From an uncultured Bacteroidales bacterium (GTDB lineage Bacteria; Bacteroidota; Bacteroidia; Bacteroidales; UBA12077): a stretch of DNA of 64,000 nt. The position numbers and the translations under genes were made by a program. The notes under the pieces were generated by a model. The model saw only the letters and a list, made by a program, of their open reading frames with translations, was not told the DNA's origin and made no database searches. Below are positions 2,346 through 52,923 of the stretch, piece by piece; the stretch's first letter is position 1, and every line of letters begins with the position of its first letter. Location of the stretch: the NCBI GenBank assembly GCA_964585385.1, contig CAZPDP010000011.1, positions 1,086 to 65,085 of the forward strand. Reading direction: 5' to 3'.

Positions 2346-4010
2346 CTATTCGATGCCAAGAACATCTTTTCCTTGCTTAAATCTTATGTCTCTGGGTATA
2401 CCTTCTTTTGTAAGTCTATCCAGGTCTTTTTGCAGTTGGTCTTCTATTACACTCTTTTCGTCAACCATCTTTTTAGCTGCATCATAATTTCCATCACCCT
2501 GCATTGTGAGGATTTTGTTTCCAAGAGTATTCATCGCTTCGGTCATCTTTTCAAAATCTACTTTATATGTTCCGGTTTCTGAATCTCTTGTAAACGCTCC
2601 CATTTCTTTGAAATAATTGAAACGCATCATATTGGCTTTACCATGAGAACTGGCTGCACCAAAACGAATGGAACGGAAGATGCTTGCCATAAAGGTTACA
2701 TAATTATCCTTTATTTCTTTATCTTCCAATTCATCCATGTCAGCAAGTTGCTTAACCAGAAATAAGCCCAGAATATCTGCTTTGCTTTCTTCCACCGGAC
2801 TGTAATATTCTTTTAATGCCTTTCTTACAGTACCTTTTCCGTTAATGGTTTCCTTTATTCCAAGTCCGTGAGCTACTTCATGAAACATGGTATTTTCAAA
2901 GAAAGCATCAAACTTGATGTATTTTCTTTGAGATTCATCTATAAGAACATCGCTTATAGGAACCAGGATCTTTTCAAATTTATAACGCATTGCGTTCTTT
3001 AACTGAAGTTTACGGCTTCCTTTTTCAACATGTACTCGTTCATCATTAGGCAGGTTAATAGCTATTGTTTTACTTCCTGCATTACAATCACCTGCATAAA
3101 AAACAGCTTCGTATACTCCCAGGTCTGAATCGCTACCAGGTTTTTCCTGTTTATATTTGTCTTCTACAGGCAGACTTTTCTGCAGTTCTGGCAACAATGC
3201 GCTAAATTTTGTGAGTTTTTTCGTCCATTCATGGTCTTTTACAAGTATAAAAGCCTCATGAGCAGCTTTGTACCCATAAAGATTGTCTTCATAATTTTCA
3301 ATCGGACCTACCACAAAATCGATATCATTATTTTTCACATCCATCCAGGCCATATCAGAATCCAGATACTTATCGTTAAGCAGTGCTTCTGCTCTTAAAT
3401 TGAGATATTTTTCAAAGGTTTTATTATCTGCCAGCTCAGCAGCTTTTTTCAGGAGATCTGCAGCTTTTTGTGTTTTTTCTTCGTAAGCTTCATGATAAGG
3501 TATTGTCATTAAGTTGCCTTCCTCATCTCTTCTGATTAACGTATAAAGGCTTGTTTTATCTTCTGCTTCGAATTTTTCAAACTCTTCTTTGGTCATATCT
3601 TCCGGGTAGAAGTTTGCACCGGCTGGCTTTTCTCCGTATCCTTTAACAAAAGGCTTATTCTCTTTCAACCTTTCCCAGGGCCCGTAATTGATTTTTACAA
3701 AAGCCTTCAGGCTTTCGTTCTCAATCTTATTCATCAACTCTTCTTTCTCTCCAAATGCCTGCTTCCAGAAAATATCATCCATAATACTTGCTGCATCAAA
3801 AAGATGAGATACCATCTTTTTTTGGTTTTCAGAGAGGTGGCTGATGTCTGCTTTAAGCTCAACTTCAACAAACTCATCCACTTTCTTCTGAACCTCGCTC
3901 ACTGGAATTTTTGCCATGCTATCTTCGTTTTCTTTTTTTGGCTGATTACATCCGGCCAAAATGGCAAAAACCAATAATAAATTCAGTACACTAAATAATT
4001 TGTTTCGCAT
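2346..4010 (-). CDS. Dipeptidyl-peptidase III family (M49) zinc peptidase, lipoprotein
   Basis: Lipobox ILAGC, 'AGSKTIAINLPND', HEVAH zinc motif, 'EESKAD' second motif. Confidence 0.85.
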   Translation of the reverse strand: MRNKLFSVLNLLLVFAILAGCNQPKKENEDSMAKIPVSEVQKKVDEFVEVELKADISHLSENQKKMVSHLFDAASIMDDIFWKQAFGEKEELMNKIENESLKAFVKINYGPWERLKENKPFVKGYGEKPAGANFYPEDMTKEEFEKFEAEDKTSLYTLIRRDEEGNLMTIPYHEAYEEKTQKAADLLKKAAELADNKTFEKYLNLRAEALLNDKYLDSDMAWMDVKNNDIDFVVGPIENYEDNLYGYKAAHEAFILVKDHEWTKKLTKFSALLPELQKSLPVEDKYKQEKPGSDSDLGVYEAVFYAGDCNAGSKTIAINLPNDERVHVEKGSRKLQLKNAMRYKFEKILVPISDVLIDESQRKYIKFDAFFENTMFHEVAHGLGIKETINGKGTVRKALKEYYSPVEESKADILGLFLVKQLADMDELEDKEIKDNYVTFMASIFRSIRFGAASSHGKANMMRFNYFKEMGAFTRDSETGTYKVDFEKMTEAMNTLGNKILTMQGDGNYDAAKKMVDEKSVIEDQLQKDLDRLTKEGIPRDIRFKQGKDVLGIE

Positions 4011-4225
4011 AGTTGTAATTTTTAAAGTTTTGTGGTTAAACCATATGATTTCTGTTACATCATAAAATTGCTAATTTAAACATTTTGATAAATCTTTAAA
4101 ATAGCTCAGTCAACAAACAAATATACAAGATTGAATTTATTACTGTTTAGATTTTTTTAAATAATTTTATAACCATTTTAATAATATTTCGTTAGCTCAA
4201 AAGAAAGAAGAAAGAAGAGAGAAAA

Positions 4226-5695
4226 ATGGATAAGCACAAGGAAGAACAATTATTATACAGGATATCGGAACTTATCAAAGAAAATAAGGAGTTGACAAAA
4301 CAACTTAAAGAACTTAATAATGAAAAATCAAAACTATCCAAAGAAAAAGAAAAACTTGAAAATGTAATTGCCCAGATTCCTTCCGAACACCTTCCCAAAG
4401 GCACAAAATATCCCAGCAAAACGCGTTCTCTCCGTTTTGACATGGTCACGGTACTTTATGCCGATGTTCAGGGTATAAAAAGAATAGCCCAGCAAAAGAC
4501 TTCCACCGACATAATGGATGAATTGGACAATATCTTCCTTGAGTTCAACAAAATTGTTAAAAAATACAAGATTGAAAAAATAAAAACCATAGGCGATGCT
4601 TATATGTGTGCGGGTGGTGTGCCTGAAAAAAACATCACCAATCCTGTGGATGTTGTGCTTGCTGCCCTTGAAATGAAGGATTATATGGTCAAGCTGAAAG
4701 AGGAATATGAATCTGAAAACCATGAATTCTGGGATTTCAGAATAGGTATTCACACTGGTGCTGTTACAGCCAATTTTCATGGGAGAAAAAAACTATCCTA
4801 TGACCTCAAGGGCGATACCGTTCATATAGCAACCCGTATAGCCTCTGCCAGCGAGTTTGAAGATGTAAATATGTCCATTATGACCTATGAACTGATAAAA
4901 CAATATTTCGCCTGTGATTACAATGGCAAAATCCCGGTGAAATATGTAGGGGATATGGAAATTCTAAAGCTTAAGCGAATTAAACCTGCTTATTCAGAAG
5001 ACCGGAAAATAGGTAAAATCCCGAACAACATTTTCATGAACAAATACCTGCTCCGTCAGTTCACGGATTTGCAGGAACTGATTCTGGACAAACTGGAGAA
5101 AGAACTTCCGGACTACCTTTATTACCATAACGTCAAGCACACCATTGATGTGGTTAACCAGGTTGAACTAATTGGTTATGGCGAAGGTGTTGATGATGAA
5201 GCGATACTGCTTCTTAAAACCGCAGCTCTTTTCCACGACGCAGGACATACCATTGGATATGACAACCATGAATATTACGGCAGTCAGCTAGCCAAGGAAT
5301 ATTTACCTAAGTTCAGCTACCGACAGGACCAGATAGAAAAAATTGAAGACCTGATTATGTCTACCAAAATACCCCCGGATCCACAAAATACCCTGGAAAA
5401 AATCATGTGTGATGCGGATCTTGACTACCTGGGAAGAAGCGATTTCATACCTGTTTCCAACACTTTATATAAGGAACTGAAGGCCCAGGATAAAATTGGA
5501 GATATTAACGAGTGGAACAAACTACAACTCAAATTTATTTCTAAACATCAGTATTTCACAGAGACAGCTTTAAACCTTAGGGAAGTTAACAAGCAAAAAC
5601 AGATTGAAAGAATCAAATCACTCATTGAGAATGGTAGCACTGAACCTGAAGAATTAAATAGCAAGCAAGGTTCATCCTCTGAGAGAAAATCCTGA
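4226..5695 (+). CDS. Class III nucleotide cyclase domain fused to an HD phosphohydrolase domain
   Basis: N-terminal coiled coil; cyclase motifs YADVQG, IKTIGDAYM, RIGIHTG, YDLKGDTVHIATR; HD motifs YHNVKHT, AALFHDAGH, CDADLDYLG. Confidence 0.85.
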   Translation: MDKHKEEQLLYRISELIKENKELTKQLKELNNEKSKLSKEKEKLENVIAQIPSEHLPKGTKYPSKTRSLRFDMVTVLYADVQGIKRIAQQKTSTDIMDELDNIFLEFNKIVKKYKIEKIKTIGDAYMCAGGVPEKNITNPVDVVLAALEMKDYMVKLKEEYESENHEFWDFRIGIHTGAVTANFHGRKKLSYDLKGDTVHIATRIASASEFEDVNMSIMTYELIKQYFACDYNGKIPVKYVGDMEILKLKRIKPAYSEDRKIGKIPNNIFMNKYLLRQFTDLQELILDKLEKELPDYLYYHNVKHTIDVVNQVELIGYGEGVDDEAILLLKTAALFHDAGHTIGYDNHEYYGSQLAKEYLPKFSYRQDQIEKIEDLIMSTKIPPDPQNTLEKIMCDADLDYLGRSDFIPVSNTLYKELKAQDKIGDINEWNKLQLKFISKHQYFTETALNLREVNKQKQIERIKSLIENGSTEPEELNSKQGSSSERKS

Positions 5696-46691: not shown

Positions 46692-47585
46692 ATGAAGATA
46701 CTGTACGTTTTATTAGGATTATTCATCATCATCAATTACGGATTGCTTAAAACAGGACTAATCCGGAGAATTACAGCGCGTGTAGGAAAACGTATAGGCG
46801 TACCCATATATCAGCCTTATATTGACCTTATCAAGACTTATGGCATTCGATCCCAGGTAACGCATGGCGTGATGTTCTACCTGGGTCCTGTTTTCAGACT
46901 GGCGGGCGGGATCGGAATATTCCTGTTCATGCCATTGATATATGGCTCTGATATGTTTAGTAATTTTTCATTCGCCGGTGACCTGATACTCATCCTGTAC
47001 TTCATCTTTTTTGGTATGCTGGGTATGGCGCTTGGCGCTGGTGAAGGCGGGCACCCCTACTCTATTGTCGGTATCAGCAGAGGATTGTCTCAATTCACAA
47101 CAGTTGAGATTCCCCTCACCCTGGCTATCATTGCCATAGCAGTTCAGTATCAAAGCTTATCAATAACCGAGATTGTAGCGGCCCAGCAGGGAGGTATAGA
47201 AAACTGGACCCTCGTAACCAATCCACTTGCTACTATTGCAGCCTTCTTTTCTTTCCTGGGAATGATGATGTATTCTCCCTTTAATGTGGTGAATGCTCCA
47301 CAGGAAAATCCTATTGGCCCCCCAACTGAATATCAGTCTACATTCCTCGGAATGCTCCAAACCAACAGGGCCATCCTTAGTGTTATGGAATCAATATTAT
47401 TTGTAAATCTTTTTTATGGTGGCGCAACAAACTGGATTGAACTTGTTGTAAAAGCCTTTATAGTCTATTTCCCTGCAATATTCATCGGTACAGTTTTCCC
47501 CAGATTCAGGGTTGATCAGTCTATTAAATGGTTTATTCTTATACCTACATTGCTGGGATTATTAGCTATTTTGTTTGCAGCTTAA
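46692..47585 (+). CDS. mbxM: NuoH-like membrane anchor / MbxM
   Basis: 'RRITARVGKRIGVPIYQPYIDLIK', 'PFNVVNAPQE', 'FPRFRVDQ'. Confidence 0.82.
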   Translation: MKILYVLLGLFIIINYGLLKTGLIRRITARVGKRIGVPIYQPYIDLIKTYGIRSQVTHGVMFYLGPVFRLAGGIGIFLFMPLIYGSDMFSNFSFAGDLILILYFIFFGMLGMALGAGEGGHPYSIVGISRGLSQFTTVEIPLTLAIIAIAVQYQSLSITEIVAAQQGGIENWTLVTNPLATIAAFFSFLGMMMYSPFNVVNAPQENPIGPPTEYQSTFLGMLQTNRAILSVMESILFVNLFYGGATNWIELVVKAFIVYFPAIFIGTVFPRFRVDQSIKWFILIPTLLGLLAILFAA

Positions 47586-47598
47586 AGTTAAATGAATT

Positions 47599-48270
47599 AT
47601 GAGTGATAACAACAAAAAAGACAAATTCTTAAAGCCTGAAAATGAGAAAAGATGGGTAACCAGCCCGGATGGAGAGAGATTTGAAGTGGATCCCATGCAG
47701 GATTATTTCTGTGATGCCCGGCCTAAAGAACACCGGCCGGCATACAGCAAAGTCGTTGAGAAATTCCTGAACTGGGCAAGAGCGGAATCCTTATGGGTAT
47801 TAGGATTTGGAACCGGTTGCGGTAGCATTGAAATTTATCCGCTTATGACACCCCGGTTTGATGCTTACCGCTTTGGCGTTCAGCAGAGACCCACTCCAAG
47901 ACAATCCAACGTACTCATTATTTCAGGATACCTGAGTGTAAAAACATTGAAAAGGGCAATCAGAACGTATGAACAGATGCAAAACCCCAAATTCGTTATG
48001 GGTTTGGGAAGTTGCACCATCAACGGCGGAATGTACTGGGACAGCTACAACACAATCAACCGGCTGGATTACTACATGCCTGTCGATGTTTACGTTGCAG
48101 GTTGTATGCCCAGGCCAGAAGCCTTACTCGCTGGTTTTGAACAGTTAAAAAAACGCATAAAAGAAGGAAGAGGCGAAGGAGCCAATGACTACGCAAGGAA
48201 CTTCGACTGGTACAAAGGCAACCAGAAAAAAATTATTAAAGACTGGAATATGCCGGATTACAACTGGTAA
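47599..48270 (+). CDS. mbxJ: NuoB-like Fe-S subunit / MbxJ
   Basis: 'FGTGCGSIE', 'GSCTINGGMYWDSYN', 'AGCMPRPEA'; three cluster Cys, no tandem CC. Confidence 0.85.
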   Translation: MSDNNKKDKFLKPENEKRWVTSPDGERFEVDPMQDYFCDARPKEHRPAYSKVVEKFLNWARAESLWVLGFGTGCGSIEIYPLMTPRFDAYRFGVQQRPTPRQSNVLIISGYLSVKTLKRAIRTYEQMQNPKFVMGLGSCTINGGMYWDSYNTINRLDYYMPVDVYVAGCMPRPEALLAGFEQLKKRIKEGRGEGANDYARNFDWYKGNQKKIIKDWNMPDYNW

Positions 48271-48328
48271 TTATAGAATTTAGAATTATGATTGAAAGCC
48301 AAAAGTTCGTAATTAAAAAAGAAGTAGT

Positions 48329-48865
48329 ATGGACAACGAAATAATTAAAAACATAAAAAATCACTTCGAAATCATAGATATAACAGAACAAAGAGATAAC
48401 CTGACTTTTGTGAGTGTTAAAAAAGATCAGACTGTGCCTTTGGTAACTTATTTGCGGGATTACGAAGGTTTTTCGCATTTTGTTCTGCTCACTGCTGTTG
48501 ACTGGATTGAAGAGGATAAATTTCAGCTAACGTATATTCTCAACCACCCTGAGAAAAAATTAGATATTGGAGTCAGAACAGGAATACCCCGTGAAAATTC
48601 AGTAATGGAATCAGCTCACCATTTATGGGCAGATATCGCCACGCATCAGCGCGAACTGAAGGAAAACTTCGGAATTGATTTTCCGGGTAGCCCGAGAGTT
48701 GATGAGGAGTTTCTCCTGGAGGGATGGGATAACACACCCCCCATGCGAAGAGAATTTGATACAAAAAAGTATTCAGAAGAAACATATTTTCCCCGACCGG
48801 GACGTGAAACGAACGATCCGGCTGAACATATGAAAAAAAAGCTATATCCTGATGAAGAAAAATAA
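48329..48865 (+). CDS. mbxK: NuoC-like subunit / MbxK
   Basis: 'LLTAVDW', 'HQRELKENFGIDFPGSP', 'LEGWDNTPPMRR'. Confidence 0.85.
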   Translation: MDNEIIKNIKNHFEIIDITEQRDNLTFVSVKKDQTVPLVTYLRDYEGFSHFVLLTAVDWIEEDKFQLTYILNHPEKKLDIGVRTGIPRENSVMESAHHLWADIATHQRELKENFGIDFPGSPRVDEEFLLEGWDNTPPMRREFDTKKYSEETYFPRPGRETNDPAEHMKKKLYPDEEK

Positions 48866-50045
48866 ACTGTTCCACTGGAATTCGGACAGAAGCGCTTTCC
48901 CGGATGTTGGAGAAGACGGCAAACTTAATATTGACCTGGATTCACAAAAATATGTCAAGGTCTGGCACGGCCCCAATCACCCCGGTGTAACCGGTAATAT
49001 GTCGCTTGAACTCACCATAAGCGGCGATGAAGTACTTGAGGCCAAAACACACGTGGGATATCTTCACCGGGGATTCGAAAAGCTCTATGAAAGAAGAAGC
49101 TACATTCAGTGTTTTCCAACTGTTGTTCGAATGTGTGTTCCCGAACCCGATTCCAACGAATACAACCTGGCTGCAGGCATTGAAGAACTGGCCGGGCTGG
49201 AAATTCCTGAAGCAGCCAAATGGCACAGAACCCTGGCGCTTGAAATGTCCCGGTTGCAGTCGTTGTTGCGAATAATGCCCGCTCAGGCCGGTACTACAGG
49301 ACTCGGACTTGGTGTACAATGGGGTGTTTACCTTCGAGATCTCATCCTCGACAGATTTGAAGAATTAACAGGTGGCAGAATATATCATATGTACATGATT
49401 CCCGGTGGTGTCAGGGGATTAATACCGGAAGGTTTTAAAGATCGGCTTGAAGAAAATCTCAAAGAAATAGATGAGTTTATTATCAATATCAAAAAATTGG
49501 TCCTTGATAATTCTGTGTTCAAAAAGCGTACGGTAGGAAGAGGAGTTATTCCTGGAGACTGGATTGACAAATATAGTGTGGTAGGACCCAATGCACGGGC
49601 TGCAGGAGTAAACAGGGATATCCGTATCGACTATCCTTATCTGAAGTACGATGAACTGGACATTGAACCATTCACAGCAGAGGATTCCGATATTTATACC
49701 CGCACCTACACCCGCTGGATGGATATTCAGACCACTGTGGACCTGTTGAGACAAATTATGGACAAGCTTCCGGAAAAGGGAGAAATAAGAACAAAAACAC
49801 CTAACGTTCTGCACTGGGAGATTCCCAAGGGTGAAACTTACATCCGGTCCGAATCCTCAAGAGGAGAATATGGATTCTACATGGTTTCAGACGGCAGCAA
49901 GTACCCCAGACGTATTAACCTGAAAGGTCCGAGCTATTCTCATGCAGTAGCCCTGCTTGAAAAAATACTGATAAATGCCAATATAGCCGACATAGGGGCG
50001 ATTATGGTTTCATTGGCAACGTGCCCGCCGGAGATTGAGCGGTGA
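48852..50045 (+). CDS. mbxL: NuoD-like large subunit / MbxL; lacks complete NiFe-binding CxxC motifs
   Basis: 'HGPNHPGVTG', 'GYLHRGFEK'. The hydrogenase L1 and L2 motifs are reduced to RMCVPE and TCPPE. Confidence 0.85.
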   Translation: MKKNKLFHWNSDRSAFPDVGEDGKLNIDLDSQKYVKVWHGPNHPGVTGNMSLELTISGDEVLEAKTHVGYLHRGFEKLYERRSYIQCFPTVVRMCVPEPDSNEYNLAAGIEELAGLEIPEAAKWHRTLALEMSRLQSLLRIMPAQAGTTGLGLGVQWGVYLRDLILDRFEELTGGRIYHMYMIPGGVRGLIPEGFKDRLEENLKEIDEFIINIKKLVLDNSVFKKRTVGRGVIPGDWIDKYSVVGPNARAAGVNRDIRIDYPYLKYDELDIEPFTAEDSDIYTRTYTRWMDIQTTVDLLRQIMDKLPEKGEIRTKTPNVLHWEIPKGETYIRSESSRGEYGFYMVSDGSKYPRRINLKGPSYSHAVALLEKILINANIADIGAIMVSLATCPPEIER

Positions 50046-50050
50046 TATGT

Positions 50051-50139
50051 GTTTAAGGTTTAAGATTAAAAAAAGAGAATGTAAGTTGTCAGATAACAGA
50101 CACAAGATACCGGATACAAGATACATGATGCCTGATAAC
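50051..50139. repeat. Upstream heptamer arrays: (GTTTAAG)2 and about 7 x NGATACN
   Basis: AGATAAC AGACACA AGATACC GGATACA AGATACA TGATGCC TGATAAC at 50091-50139. Confidence 0.8.
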
Positions 50140-50215
50140 AGGATATCGAAGCATCGAAATGTTAGAATAGGATAATAAAAAGATAAAGCTTTCATTACAA
50201 TACTAAACTAATCAT

Positions 50216-50593
50216 ATGAGCTATAAGAAACTGGAAATTTGGAGTCTTGCCAGAGAACTGGTTGTAGACATACATAAAATGACTTTAAATGAACTTCCGA
50301 AATTTGAAATGTATGAAACAGCTTCCCAGATAAGAAGGTCTATTAAATCTGTTAAAGCCAATATAGTCGAAGGTTATGGAAGAAGAGAATACAAACAGGA
50401 ATTCATCAGATTTTTGACATTTGCAATAGCATCAAATGATGAAACGATTGATCATTTAGAAACTTTATATGAAACTGAATCTTTAAAAAATAAAAAGCTA
50501 TATGATGAAATACACCAGAAGTTAAATCTACTGAGTAAAAAATTGTTAAAGTTTCATGAAGTAGTAAATATCAATCACAAAACCCATAGATAA
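50216..50593 (+). CDS. Four-helix-bundle protein (23S rRNA IVS protein / TIGR02436-like family)
   Basis: '[21 protein letters not shown]', '[30 protein letters not shown]', '[15 protein letters not shown]'. Confidence 0.88.
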
Positions 50594-50668
50594 AATCCGA
50601 TATCCGGTATCTGGTATCCCGTATCTGGTATCCGAAATCAATATTCGAAATTAAACTTCAAACTTTTA
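50592..50668. repeat. Downstream heptamer arrays, reverse complement of the upstream arrays
   Basis: GATATCC GGTATCT GGTATCC CGTATCT GGTATCC at 50599-50633; TAAACTTCAAAC at 50652-50663. Confidence 0.8.
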
Positions 50669-50679
50669 ACGAAAATACT

Positions 50680-52455
50680 ATGAACCTAAAAGACATACTA
50701 TCCCCCTTCTCAGCCTGGAAAAACTTATTGAAGGAACCGGTTACTGTTAAGGATCCAATCAATGAGAGACCTGGTGCACCAAGATACAGGGGATTTCACA
50801 AGAACGACATTGAAAAATGCATTGGTTGCGGAACCTGTGAAGAAATCTGTGAGAATGAGGCTATTGACCTTGTTGAAGTAGCCAGCATAGAAACTACCGA
50901 TGGTGACAGTGGACTCAGACCAAGAGTTGATTATGGACGATGCTGCTGGTGTGCTCTTTGCGTGGATGTTTGCCCCACCGGCTCACTCACCATGTCCAAT
51001 GAATATATATGGATTGATGAAAATCCTGATGTATTTCGTTATACTCCAGGCATCGAAAGCAAAGAATGGGACAACAACCAACTGGGATGGACCAAACCGG
51101 AGTACCCGTTGTATGAACCTGAGCGTGTTGATATGGTAGAGATGGACGCCGATGAACGCAAAAGTTCATTCCTTGAAATAGTCAGAGGTTATTCACGGGA
51201 ACAGGCTGAAAAAGAAGCTGACCGGTGCATTCAGTGCGGTATATGTGTTGCTACATGTCCTGCTCACATGGATATTCCGGGATATATAAAATCCGTTCGT
51301 GAAGGGGATATGGAAAAAGGACTTCATCTGCTTTATGATACCAACCCGCTTCCGGAAATCTGCGGGAGAGTTTGTACGCACAGATGTGAAACGGTTTGTG
51401 CTGTCGGACATGAAGGCGATCCGCTGGCTATTCGCTGGCTCAAGAGGTACATTGCGGATGCTGTACCTTTCGAGCAATACAAGGAAATTCTCGGCGTAAC
51501 AGATATTGAAGAAAACGGCAAAAAAGTGGGCATCATCGGAGCTGGTCCGGCAGGACTGGCAACTGCATATTACCTGAGAATAAAAGGCTTTGACGTCACT
51601 ATTTACGAAGCCAAATCCAAAGGCGGAGGCATGACCATGTATGGTATTCCCAAATACAGGCTCCCGCAAAATATGCTTGATTCTGAAATCGGTTTCATCG
51701 AAGATATTGGAGTGAACATTCATTACGAAACAAGAGTTGGTGAAGACATCAGTTTTGAAGAAATCTACGATAAGTTCGATGCAGTATTCGTAGGTATTGG
51801 ATTCCAACACCCCTATACACTTGCCATTGAAGGTGAAGACCTGAAAGGTTCTCTGCAGGCGATTGATTTCCTGGACAAGATTAATAAGAGCGAAAAGGTA
51901 GACATTGGAAAGAAAACAGCCATTATCGGCGGGGGCAATGTGGCCATGGATGCCGCCAGGGTGGCAAGAAGACTTGATACGGATGTAACAGTCCTGTACC
52001 GGCGAAGGGTACAAGATATGCCGGCAGACGAAGAAGAAATCGAAGGAGCTTACGATGAAGGAGTTAAAATTGAACCTCAAACAATACCGGTTAAGATTAT
52101 TCCGGATGAAAAAGGAAACGTGAAGGCCATTCAATACCTCCGGGCAGAACTGGTACAACAGGAGGAGGGAAAAAGACCCAGGCCTGTACCCATTGAAGGA
52201 AGCGAAGAAACACTGGAAGTGGACAGTGTGATCGGTGCCATCGGACAGGAAGCCAAATACACCTTCCTGCCGGAAAAATTCGAGAAACAACTTGAACTAA
52301 AACGCGGAAGAATGGTTGTAGATAAAAACAACAAAACTACAATCCATAAAATATATGCAGGTGGAGACGCTGTCAACAGAACGGCAGATGCTATCAGTGC
52401 AATTGCAGATGGACACCGGGCAGCAAATGGAATTGAAAAAATGCTATTAAAATAA
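50680..52455 (+). CDS. NuoI-like 2x[4Fe-4S] subunit (MbxN) fused to a GltD/SudA-like FAD-NAD(P)H oxidoreductase
   Basis: [11 protein letters not shown] and [12 protein letters not shown]; then [50 protein letters not shown]. Confidence 0.88.
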
Positions 52456-52461
52456 AAGCTT

Positions 52462-52923
52462 ATGAATGAAAATTTTAGCAATCCAAGGGAAGTTATTGAC
52501 TTCGCCATTGAGCGCGAACAAGAAGCACACGATTTCTATCTGAACCTTAAAGAACATGTTAAATCCAAGGAACTACAGGATACATTAAACCAATTCGCCA
52601 TGGAAGAATTGGGTCATAAAAAGAAACTCCAGAGCATTATAGAGAAAACGGAAGAATATGGCTTTACCAAAGATGAGGTTACACATCTAAAAATCGGTGA
52701 TTATCTTGTTGACAAGACACCTACTGCTGACATGTCTTACCAGGATGTACTGATCATATCCATGAAAAAAGAAAAGAAATCCTATCTTCTTTACACCGAT
52801 CTGGCTCAAAGAGTAAACAATCCTGAGCTGAAAAAGATATTCAGTAACCTGGCCCAGGAAGAAGCGAGCCATAAATTAAGGTTTGAATTGGAATATGACG
52901 AACATATTCTTTCCGACAATTAA
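52462..52923 (+). CDS. Ferritin-like / rubrerythrin-family di-iron protein
   Basis: 'AIEREQEAHDFY', 'EELGH', 'EKKSYLLY', 'EEASH'; no rubredoxin domain. Confidence 0.82.
   Translation: MNENFSNPREVIDFAIEREQEAHDFYLNLKEHVKSKELQDTLNQFAMEELGHKKKLQSIIEKTEEYGFTKDEVTHLKIGDYLVDKTPTADMSYQDVLIISMKKEKKSYLLYTDLAQRVNNPELKKIFSNLAQEEASHKLRFELEYDEHILSDN

Follow-up and report, generated by a model that had tools for sequence, protein, structure and literature searches.

The stretch of DNA analysed here, hereafter the window, comprises 64,000 nucleotides of contig CAZPDP010000011.1 from an uncultured Bacteroidales bacterium (assembly GCA_964585385.1, positions 1,086 to 65,085 of the forward strand), and the element in question is a short gene of the S23p family that is bracketed by inverted arrays of degenerate heptamers and lies between two cistrons of a co-directional Mrp/Nuo-like cluster. 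All window features described below are on the plus strand. The gene (50216–50593 in the list of open reading frames, ORFs) encodes a 125-aa four-helix-bundle protein that matched PF05635 (23S_rRNA_IVP; E = 6.3e-26, 91.1 bits against a cut-off of 33.8) and TIGR02436 (‘four helix bundle protein’; E = 2e-26, 92.3 bits against a cut-off of 24) in profile searches, as well as the PDB entries 2gsc (Xanthomonas XCC0516; E = 2.6e-6) and 2rld, each deposited with five chains. Upstream lies a NuoD-family (mbxL-like) subunit (48852–50045 in the ORF list; PF00346, E = 1.7e-55), which ends in a TGA stop codon at 50043–50045, and downstream lies an mbxN-like cistron (50680–52455), identified from the ORF list and profiles as a fusion of a NuoI-like 2x[4Fe-4S] part with a GltD/SudA-like NAD(P)H oxidoreductase. 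The four-helix-bundle gene is on the same strand as both neighbours, and the ORFs around it (46692–52923) matched NADH-dehydrogenase-type subunits and a rubrerythrin-like protein in the profile search. The window protein shares 75% identity with its closest homologue, and no relatives of the gene were found among the viral contigs and the phage collection.

Two pairs of arrays surround the gene. The inner upstream array (50090–50148), which was recovered by Tandem Repeats Finder, a pattern scan, an array scan, and pairing in the minimum free energy (MFE) fold, consists of approximately seven units (CAGATAA, CAGACAC, AAGATAC, CGGATAC, AAGATAC, ATGATGC, and CTGATAA) followed by CAGGATATCG. The downstream array (50595–50639; GATATCC, GGTATCT, GGTATCC, CGTATCT, GGTATCC, and GAAATC), detected by Tandem Repeats Finder, a repeat finder, and the scans, is its reverse complement and begins 2 nt past the stop codon. 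At a period of 7, Tandem Repeats Finder reported 50098–50129 and 50595–50634 (4.6 and 5.7 copies, respectively) with a 14-nt super-period, and the separate array scan reported 50090–50136 and 50595–50632. According to the repeat finder, the arms were 77% complementary over 35 nt (50089–50123 and 50601–50635) or 73% over 45 nt (50092–50136 and 50595–50639), and eight of the nine mismatches in the best ungapped register fell within the last three positions of the heptamer unit. The outer left bracket (50051–50064), two copies of GTTTAAG, starts 5 nt past the mbxL stop codon and is complementary to the outer right bracket (50651–50671; TTAAACT, TCAAACT, and TTTAACG), which was apparent in the sequence, the repeat finder output, and the fold; the repeat finder returned this pair as 50051–50063 and 50651–50663 (13 nt, 85% complementary), built of heptamers (GTTTAAG twice versus TTAAACT and TCAAACT). 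The brackets in the window are nested, and GTTTAAG is also the unit of a Riemerella cassette (L131). A sequence-only reading of the window had placed and counted the arrays essentially as found here; its estimate of 26 complementary positions out of 35 was about right, and the outer pair it had proposed (50051–50062 and 50652–50663) was confirmed.

Such arrays are rare outside this context. The degenerate three-unit pattern GGTATCNNGTATCNNGTATC (≤3 mismatches) had nine matches in the 64 kb, all within the two inner arrays, against 0.23 expected, and these two were the only arrays of this kind in the window. Across 266 kb picked independently of the gene (the window and 45 mbxL loci), only four period-7 arrays were detected, namely the two of the window, one purine run, and one in the mbxL-mbxN spacer of locus L085. 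Between the inner upstream array and the start codon lies an A+T-rich leader (50149–50215; examined with the promoter consensus scan), and neither a sigma-70-type promoter nor an intrinsic terminator was found on the plus strand of 49900–50800 by a scan that used the sigma-70 consensus and did not cover Bacteroidota promoters. An Rfam scan of 49000–52000 yielded no match except a chance snoRNA hit, and the stem described next is not a curated RNA family.

All of the RNA structures reported here are thermodynamic predictions. The fold of 50040–50690 had an MFE of -131.1 kcal/mol, compared with -106.6 ± 4.1 for shuffled sequences (z = -5.98), and the centroid structure agreed with it. In this predicted structure, a 5′ arm (50041–50148) is joined to a 3′ arm (50598–50686) by 64 pairs, of which 60 are Watson-Crick and 4 are G·U, arranged as helices of 6–8 bp each with 1x1 or 2x2 internal loops between them at the unit boundaries. 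The predicted base of the stem encloses the mbxN start codon (50680–50682) and brings it to within a few nucleotides, across the helix, of the mbxL stop codon (50043–50045). The long, periodically interrupted duplex joining the flanking cistrons that the earlier reading had proposed is therefore both the MFE and the centroid prediction.

The same anatomy recurs throughout the relatives of the window gene. A scan of one genome per GTDB species gave 413 relatives, from which 80 loci (79 with a complete ORF) were kept. As these were picked for their likeness to the window protein and several orthologous sets are among them, the samples are not independent, and neighbour calling and array detection were heuristic. 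The proteins were 62–76% identical and came from about ten phyla (Planctomycetota, KSB1, Desulfobacterota, Ignavibacteriota, Chlorobiota, Bacteroidota, Rhodothermota/Balneolales, Fibrobacterota, Neomarinimicrobiota, and Verrucomicrobiota). When the flanks of the 79 loci were read, nearly all of them showed a tandem array upstream (units such as CTGGATG, CTGGTTA, GCGGGAT, TTCGTAG, and TAGATGG) and its reverse complement just past the stop codon (CATCCAG, TAACCAG, ATCCCGC, and CGAACAA, for example). A strict detector found the upstream array at 52 of the 79 loci, the downstream array at 49, and both at 37, and at most of the remaining loci shorter or more degenerate arrays were visible by eye. 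The density of arrays was approximately 2.8 per kb within about 300 nt of the gene and 0.1 per kb elsewhere in the same loci.

The two arms are matched to each other at each locus. In MFE folds, the 5′ and 3′ flanks formed a median of 43 pairs with one another, compared with 9.5 in shifted control windows, and at least 25 flank-flank pairs were formed at 59 of 75 loci but in only 22 of 124 controls (Mann-Whitney p = 4e-19). Pairing was better between cognate arms than between arms of different loci (p = 6e-5) or with shuffled arms (p = 7e-13), which indicates that the complementarity is locus-specific and that the unit covaries between the arms. At an orthologous tdh-kbl site in Ignavibacteria, for example, the arrays read CTGGATA/TATCCAG in L007 and L010 and CCGGATA/TATCCGG in L021; thus, the repeat unit varies by locus, but within any one locus the two arms remain complementary. 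More elaborate arrangements were also seen. In L042 (3560–4700), a module of ~80 nt (GCCATCTAACGCGAGGGCTCCGCGTTCACTACGTTCGAGTGATCCAGCATCCAGCAACC...), itself holding heptamers, is repeated three times in tandem on either side of the gene, forming a more complex bracket, and in L050 (3475–4353) and L062 (downstream of the gene) there are tandem partial duplications and truncated second copies of the four-helix-bundle gene.

The bracket extends to distant PF05635 copies and to ribosomal RNA. A paralogue in L049 from a different subfamily (TIGR02436, E = 4e-32) is surrounded by AATTGAC/GTCAATT arrays, copies on cyanobacterial plasmids (32–48% identical) have AGGGTGT/ACACCCT, GGGAAAA/TTTTCCC, GGTGACA/TGTCACC, GGCAGAA/TTCTGCC, or GGAGATA-type brackets, and the Riemerella copy (L131) has GGTTTAA/AAACCTT. 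Other family members, both the close homologues and these distant copies, hence do carry inverted heptamer arrays; their absence would have counted against the earlier reading. In Azospirillum lipoferum 4B (L133), a 23S rRNA gene (Rfam LSU_rRNA_bacteria, 1207 bits) houses a PF05635 ORF (E = 2e-33) between AGAGGAC/GGATGAC units and their complement, with a predicted 25-bp stem; this is a canonical intervening sequence (IVS) carrying the same bracket as the window cassette. The succession of array, leader, ORF, and array accordingly characterises the PF05635 family over about ten phyla, and a true IVS of 23S rRNA as well.

The IVS of Coxiella burnetii provides the experimental counterpart. It carries tandem GACAGAT heptamers upstream of S23p in a copy number that varies, also between strains, and its terminal inverted repeats pair into a 28-bp stem (PMC4990558). 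This stem is cut internally by recombinant RNase III from both Coxiella and E. coli, as mapped by rapid amplification of cDNA ends, with the 5′ site at the first repeat; the excised IVS RNA is labile and decays rapidly, and the S23p ORF is decaying and probably untranslated (PMC4990558). The suggestion, made from the sequence, that the window holds an IVS-like element thereby gains from an identical architecture in two genuine rRNA intervening sequences, those of L133 and Coxiella (PMC4990558). Heptamers upstream of S23p were found in the literature for Coxiella only, and we found no paper linking the family to inverted heptamer arrays outside rRNA, in a survey whose coverage was incomplete and leaves room for an earlier description.

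The gene is not fixed between mbxL and mbxN. Among the orthologous junctions obtained from metagenomes, 34 of 38 were gene-less, with spacers of 0–54 nt; an apparent 395-nt gap in L118 proved to be an alignment artefact. The closest relative of the window operon (L081; MbxL 81% identical) has a non-coding, G+C-rich spacer of 176 nt (3401–3577) with a hairpin (AACCCGCGTCAGCGGGT) and no cassette, and this spacer gave no Rfam match at the gathering score. Another close relative (L095) has a 100-nt spacer with heptamer-like remnants, and in L096 (MbxL 78% identical, on a 1.7-Mb contig) the same spacer (3691–4163) is occupied by another PF05635 gene, a distant one of 131 aa (E = 3e-34), whose flanks are A+T-rich and heptamer-like (TTGATTA/AAATCAA). 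Locus L013 carries a type-A gene at the mbxL-mbxN site; its MbxN is only 51% identical to that of the window, and its own nearest MbxN relatives (L082, L083, L086, and L123; 64–66%) are empty, which means that the spacer has been filled independently or emptied repeatedly.

Copies that were 85–91% identical at the nucleotide level occurred in unrelated contexts (L034/L067, L041/L066, L024/L027/L045, and L068/L077, the last being two copies in Fodinibius salsisoli). Homology between these copies sets in within the upstream array and, for most pairs, stops within the downstream one, and the mobile unit therefore consists of the arrays, the leader, and the ORF. The idea of a mobile element was supported to this extent, the arrays and the gene moving as one unit.

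Arrays were also encountered with other contents or with none. Gene-less array hairpins were present in L024, L052, L063, and L027, and L052 additionally retains an internally deleted 68-aa remnant (a pseudogene) between intact arrays (1955–2299). The 54-nt mbxL-mbxN spacer of L085 (3691–3745) holds a gene-less period-7 array (TAAATAG, TAAATCA, and TAAATAA) that may be a scar or a landing pad. Inverted CTGGATA/TATCCAG arrays in L060 (4965–6512) bracket a 1.3-kb cargo of four small ORFs, namely a VapC-type PIN toxin, a sub-threshold match to the addiction-module family TIGR02574, and two ORFs without a family match; since this toxin-antitoxin-type cargo lies between arrays of the same unit, the bracket is not exclusive to four-helix-bundle genes. 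In one co-directional cluster of L049 (850–4500), three consecutive spacers contain arrays: a gene-less one with two unit types (857–1038), a paralogous cassette (2048–2562), and a type-A cassette (~3950–4495). A 32-mer of one L049 array had ~2–5 times the neighbouring contig depth in sequencing run X5, and the array is therefore multi-copy in that genome. One low-depth contig joins position 2127 to 2531 and so skips the paralogue, but this joint has only 24 nt on one side and may be an assembly artefact at inverted repeats. Of the L049 runs X5–X9, whose kind is unstated, X5 and X7 look like DNA, and X8 and X9 have uneven depth but 48–69 kb contigs and were therefore not used as transcript evidence.

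The orientation of the cassette relative to its surroundings was strongly biased. Among loci with callable neighbours, both neighbours were co-oriented with the cassette in 49, both were opposite in 1, and 11 were mixed. The median distance was 5 nt from the upstream stop codon to the first array and 27 nt from the last array to the next start codon, so that the cassettes fill the intercistronic spacers and their arrays abut the codons on either side, as in the window. Cyanobacterial copies were likewise co-oriented with their neighbours (cas6-cas4, parA-parB, or after an integrase gene), and the ORF was sense-oriented in both rRNA intervening sequences considered (Coxiella and L133). Given that a random drop between co-directional genes predicts 50:50 and 49:1 was seen, the cassette depends on the sense orientation of a host transcript or is tolerated only in it. 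The plasmid-borne copies of Anabaena sp. 90 (L134, 789–1157) and Pseudanabaena galeata (L135, 792–1151) have cas6 on one side and cas4 on the other in a CRISPR-Cas locus, and the cassette of Geminocystis (L129) lies between a parA-like gene and parB.

Taken together, we consider it somewhat probable that the element is an IVS-type hitchhiker cassette residing in an mRNA, with arrays that form a long imperfect RNA stem processed by RNase III. In this composite explanation, the PF05635 ORF would sit in the loop of a long stem whose arms are the inverted arrays of degenerate heptamers. The cassette, having no evident promoter or terminator, would be transcribed with the mbx operon, and in the mbx transcript the arrays would pair into an interrupted duplex of ~60 bp that loops out the ORF and juxtaposes the mbxL stop and mbxN start codons. 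RNase III would cut this stem, as it does in the Coxiella and Leptospira intervening sequences, thereby releasing the cassette RNA and splitting the operon mRNA, and such cutting could make the insertion tolerable to the host while providing the ORF with a message of its own. A duplex of at least 20 bp is a generic RNase III substrate. The heptamer periodicity may be a by-product of slippage, with either arm able to gain or lose length and yet pair in a different register, and the cassette, which would spread without encoding a transposase, may use recombination through the arrays. We argue for a role at the RNA level on account of the rRNA precedent in the same element family, the sense bias, and the pairing of long co-transcribed complementary arrays.

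Several observations weigh against this explanation. The first concerns wobble pairs: selection on the sense RNA predicts more G·U than A·C mismatches, and a symmetric local alignment of the upstream arm with the reverse complement of the downstream arm at 59 loci gave 115 G·U-type and 110 A·C-type mismatches together with 288 transversions, that is, no wobble signature. A modest preference in folding energy for the sense over the antisense strand (49 of 74 loci, p = 0.008, whole flanks) is not robust in the light of this missing G·U excess, and we regard it as superseded. The earlier reading of an IVS-like element was supported in part, as to the predicted stem and the IVS-type architecture, but selection on an RNA helix was not demonstrated, and the complementarity of the arms could be maintained at the DNA level. 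The predicted duplex at the window is broken every 6–8 bp, and the host RNase III may or may not cleave it. As the promoter scan was limited to the sigma-70 consensus, an internal promoter of the Bacteroidota type is conceivable. Balneolaceae cassettes (L040, L065, L068, and L077) have in common a conserved leader motif (TTGTAAGGAWT...) that follows the array and lies ~60–80 nt ahead of the start codon. This motif may serve as an internal promoter or have a regulatory role, which would bear on the assumption that the cassette is promoterless. Finally, the window locus was invariant in four metagenome runs and showed no sign of ongoing excision, in assembled contigs of a kind that drops rare variants.

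If the arms are maintained as DNA, the arrays may be the termini or homology arms of a transposase-less cassette that serve recombination or gene conversion between array-bearing spacers, or that are used by a host recombinase in trans, with the RNA duplex an unselected side effect. We take this to be a serious possibility, if not a probable one. It accounts for the limits of homology between copies in unrelated contexts, which start and stop in the arrays, for the gene-less hairpins (L024, L052, L063, and L027, and L085 in the mbx spacer), which could be landing pads or scars, for the same-unit arrays around what are read as two toxin-antitoxin pairs in L060, for the nested brackets in the window, and for the occupation of one spacer by different PF05635 subfamilies; an array 32-mer is 5–8 times over-represented in the L049 organism, and the mismatch spectrum is symmetric (G·U 115 versus A·C 110). 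No transposase or recombinase travels with the cassette, however, no target-site duplication is visible at the window junctions, and no recent copy of the window cassette was found, its closest relative being the 75% identical protein mentioned above. A purely DNA-level role predicts neither the 49:1 sense bias nor the recurrence of the bracket in rRNA, with a stem that RNase III has been proven to cut, and because the arrays are co-transcribed the RNA duplex would form regardless. The DNA-level and RNA-level readings are not mutually exclusive.

The arrays might alternatively be binding sites, in DNA or RNA, for the encoded four-helix-bundle protein, an idea of the earlier reading. The protein, presumably pentameric like the homopentameric toroids of its family, would then lead to autoregulation or to a nucleoprotein complex. 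Tandem short units would suit cooperative binding by an oligomer, the PDB relatives were deposited with five chains, and the unit type partly tracks the protein clade. Avd, a protein of diversity-generating retroelements (DGRs), binds reverse transcriptase and nucleic acid. This protein is related to the window protein by homology (PMC10053308), and a protein partner has been proposed for the heptamer repeats of Nostoc (10.1101/2022.06.06.494920). The units differ widely, however (GATACNN, CTGGATG, CTGGTTA, GCGGGAT, GGGTGTA, GGTGACA, GGTTTAA, and AGAGGAC), whereas the core motif of the protein (Q-I/V-R/K-R-x-S-x-S-I/V-x-x-N-I/V-A/V-E-G) is nearly constant; what is conserved is the complementarity rather than the sequence, arrays are also present around other cargo or with none, and the correlation between clade and unit is equally explained by co-inheritance. 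We therefore consider binding by the encoded protein an improbable explanation of the arrays. To the view that they are neutral, slippage-prone simple-sequence repeats (SSRs) of spacers whose adjacency to the gene is functionless, we give hardly any credence. Heptanucleotides are the commonest class of long SSR in bacteria, as cited in PMC4679880 and PMC4692102, and copy number differs between loci and between Coxiella strains, yet the arrays are enriched 25- to 300-fold beside PF05635 genes, always form an inverted pair of fixed polarity, keep their locus-specific complementarity at orthologous sites of diverged genera (L007 and L010 versus L021), and follow a pattern conserved over about ten phyla and in rRNA.

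Among described elements, the 23S rRNA intervening sequences that carry an S23p ORF (Coxiella burnetii, Leptospira, and Azospirillum lipoferum 4B) come closest to the window cassette. The window cassette shares with them the ORF family and its sense orientation, tandem heptamers upstream (GACAGAT in Coxiella and AGAGGAC in Azospirillum) with complementary units downstream, a stem from which the ORF is looped out (predicted for the window), and insertion into a highly transcribed unit, the cassette having no evident promoter of its own. The 23S rRNA intervening sequences are located in helix 45, 25, or 9. The window cassette differs from them in that its host is a protein-coding operon and its flanks are protein-coding, with no 23S helix location, and in that its predicted stem has a stop and a start codon at its base where theirs has an rRNA helix. 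Moreover, ORFs of the window type appear intact and conserved (62–76% identity across phyla), whereas that of Coxiella is decaying, and RNase III cleavage is experimental for the Coxiella IVS (PMC4990558) while for the window cassette it is proposed by analogy. Because location within an rRNA helix is the defining feature and the window cassette lies outside any such helix, we do not file it as a 23S rRNA IVS.

With at least three tandem degenerate 7-nt units in an intergenic spacer, the window arrays belong by form with the heptameric SSRs described in several bacteria, namely the short tandemly repeated repetitive (STRR) sequences of cyanobacteria, including Nostoc GGGGA(C/T)T, as well as Xanthomonas GGGAATC and Beggiatoaceae TAACTGA, all of which are tandem degenerate 7-nt units in operon spacers that often abut ORF ends. 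The Xanthomonas heptamers form 70–75 convergent (inverted) pairs, and heptameric repeats in operon spacers are conserved in position and variable in copy number, with a function that is not known (PMC4692102 and PMC4679880); a binding partner has been postulated in the Nostoc preprint (10.1101/2022.06.06.494920). What sets the window arrays apart from these described repeats is their link to one particular cargo gene and to a partner array. Neither ‘S23’ nor ‘four helix’ appears anywhere in PMC4692102 or PMC4679880, and the Nostoc preprint was not searched for them. A G-quadruplex, as proposed for G-rich heptamers (PMC4692102), is not applicable to the GATAC unit of the window.

The DGR protein Avd has a homologous four-helix-bundle fold (PMC10053308), and the bAvd profile PF22296 gave sub-threshold matches to the L096 and Anabaena relatives. 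A DGR was nonetheless rejected for the window, as the ORFs profiled next to the gene (46692–52923) include respiratory-complex subunits but no reverse transcriptase, the 851-nt region scanned (49950–50800) showed neither template and variable repeats nor any long pair of direct repeats, and the phage collection gave no match. MITEs (miniature transposable elements with inverted repeats), repetitive extragenic palindromes (REP), and bacterial interspersed mosaic elements (BIME) resemble the cassette as short inverted-repeat elements of intercistronic spacers with filled and empty sites and no transposase of their own. The cassette differs from them in having heptamer arrays of variable length and sequence as termini rather than a fixed terminal inverted repeat, a conserved protein-coding cargo, no target-site duplication, and diverged rather than near-identical copies. 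A classical insertion sequence or MITE was accordingly rejected: no target-site duplication was seen when the junctions were checked by eye, and there is no fixed terminal inverted repeat and no transposase.

The novelty here lies in the general rule that inverted heptamer arrays accompany PF05635 genes in rRNA as well as in mRNA, and that these genes reside between cistrons as cassettes in the sense orientation. Two old puzzles, the S23p/IVS protein family and the bacterial heptanucleotide arrays, thereby merge into one testable problem. To our knowledge, no function has been assigned either to the S23p/IVS family, which comprises thousands of genes, has been known since 1993, and has solved crystal structures, or to the heptanucleotide arrays, described as STRR in cyanobacteria since 1990. 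The rRNA intervening sequences may be merely the most visible part of a much larger population of cassettes inside operons. If processing by RNase III does take place, many operons in Bacteroidota, Ignavibacteriota, Desulfobacterota, and Cyanobacteria would be cut at cassettes, with cas6-cas4, parA-parB, tdh-kbl, and ABC transporter operons as example hosts, and this would bear on operon annotation, on transcript stoichiometry, and on metagenome assembly, in which arrays break contigs. A wider proposal, which is speculative and which we think unlikely, would be that PF05635 proteins and inverted heptamer arrays together constitute an unrecognised class of transposase-less cassettes in rRNA helices and intercistronic spacers; the protein would then be the long-sought trans-acting partner of bacterial heptamer repeats (the cyanobacterial STRR and the Xanthomonas GGGAATC pairs). 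By binding the duplex or hairpin of the arrays, it would either control processing by RNase III or drive a recombination of cassettes guided by the arrays, those with toxin-antitoxin cargo among them.

The host operon has a feature of its own. The mbxN-like cistron downstream of the cassette encodes 591 aa, and the fusion carries Fer4_20 and Pyr_redox_2, the GltD/SudA-like NAD(P)H:flavin oxidoreductase part. It is followed by the rubrerythrin-like gene (52462–52923), and together the fusion and this gene form an unusual electron-input module for an Mbx/Nuo-like complex.

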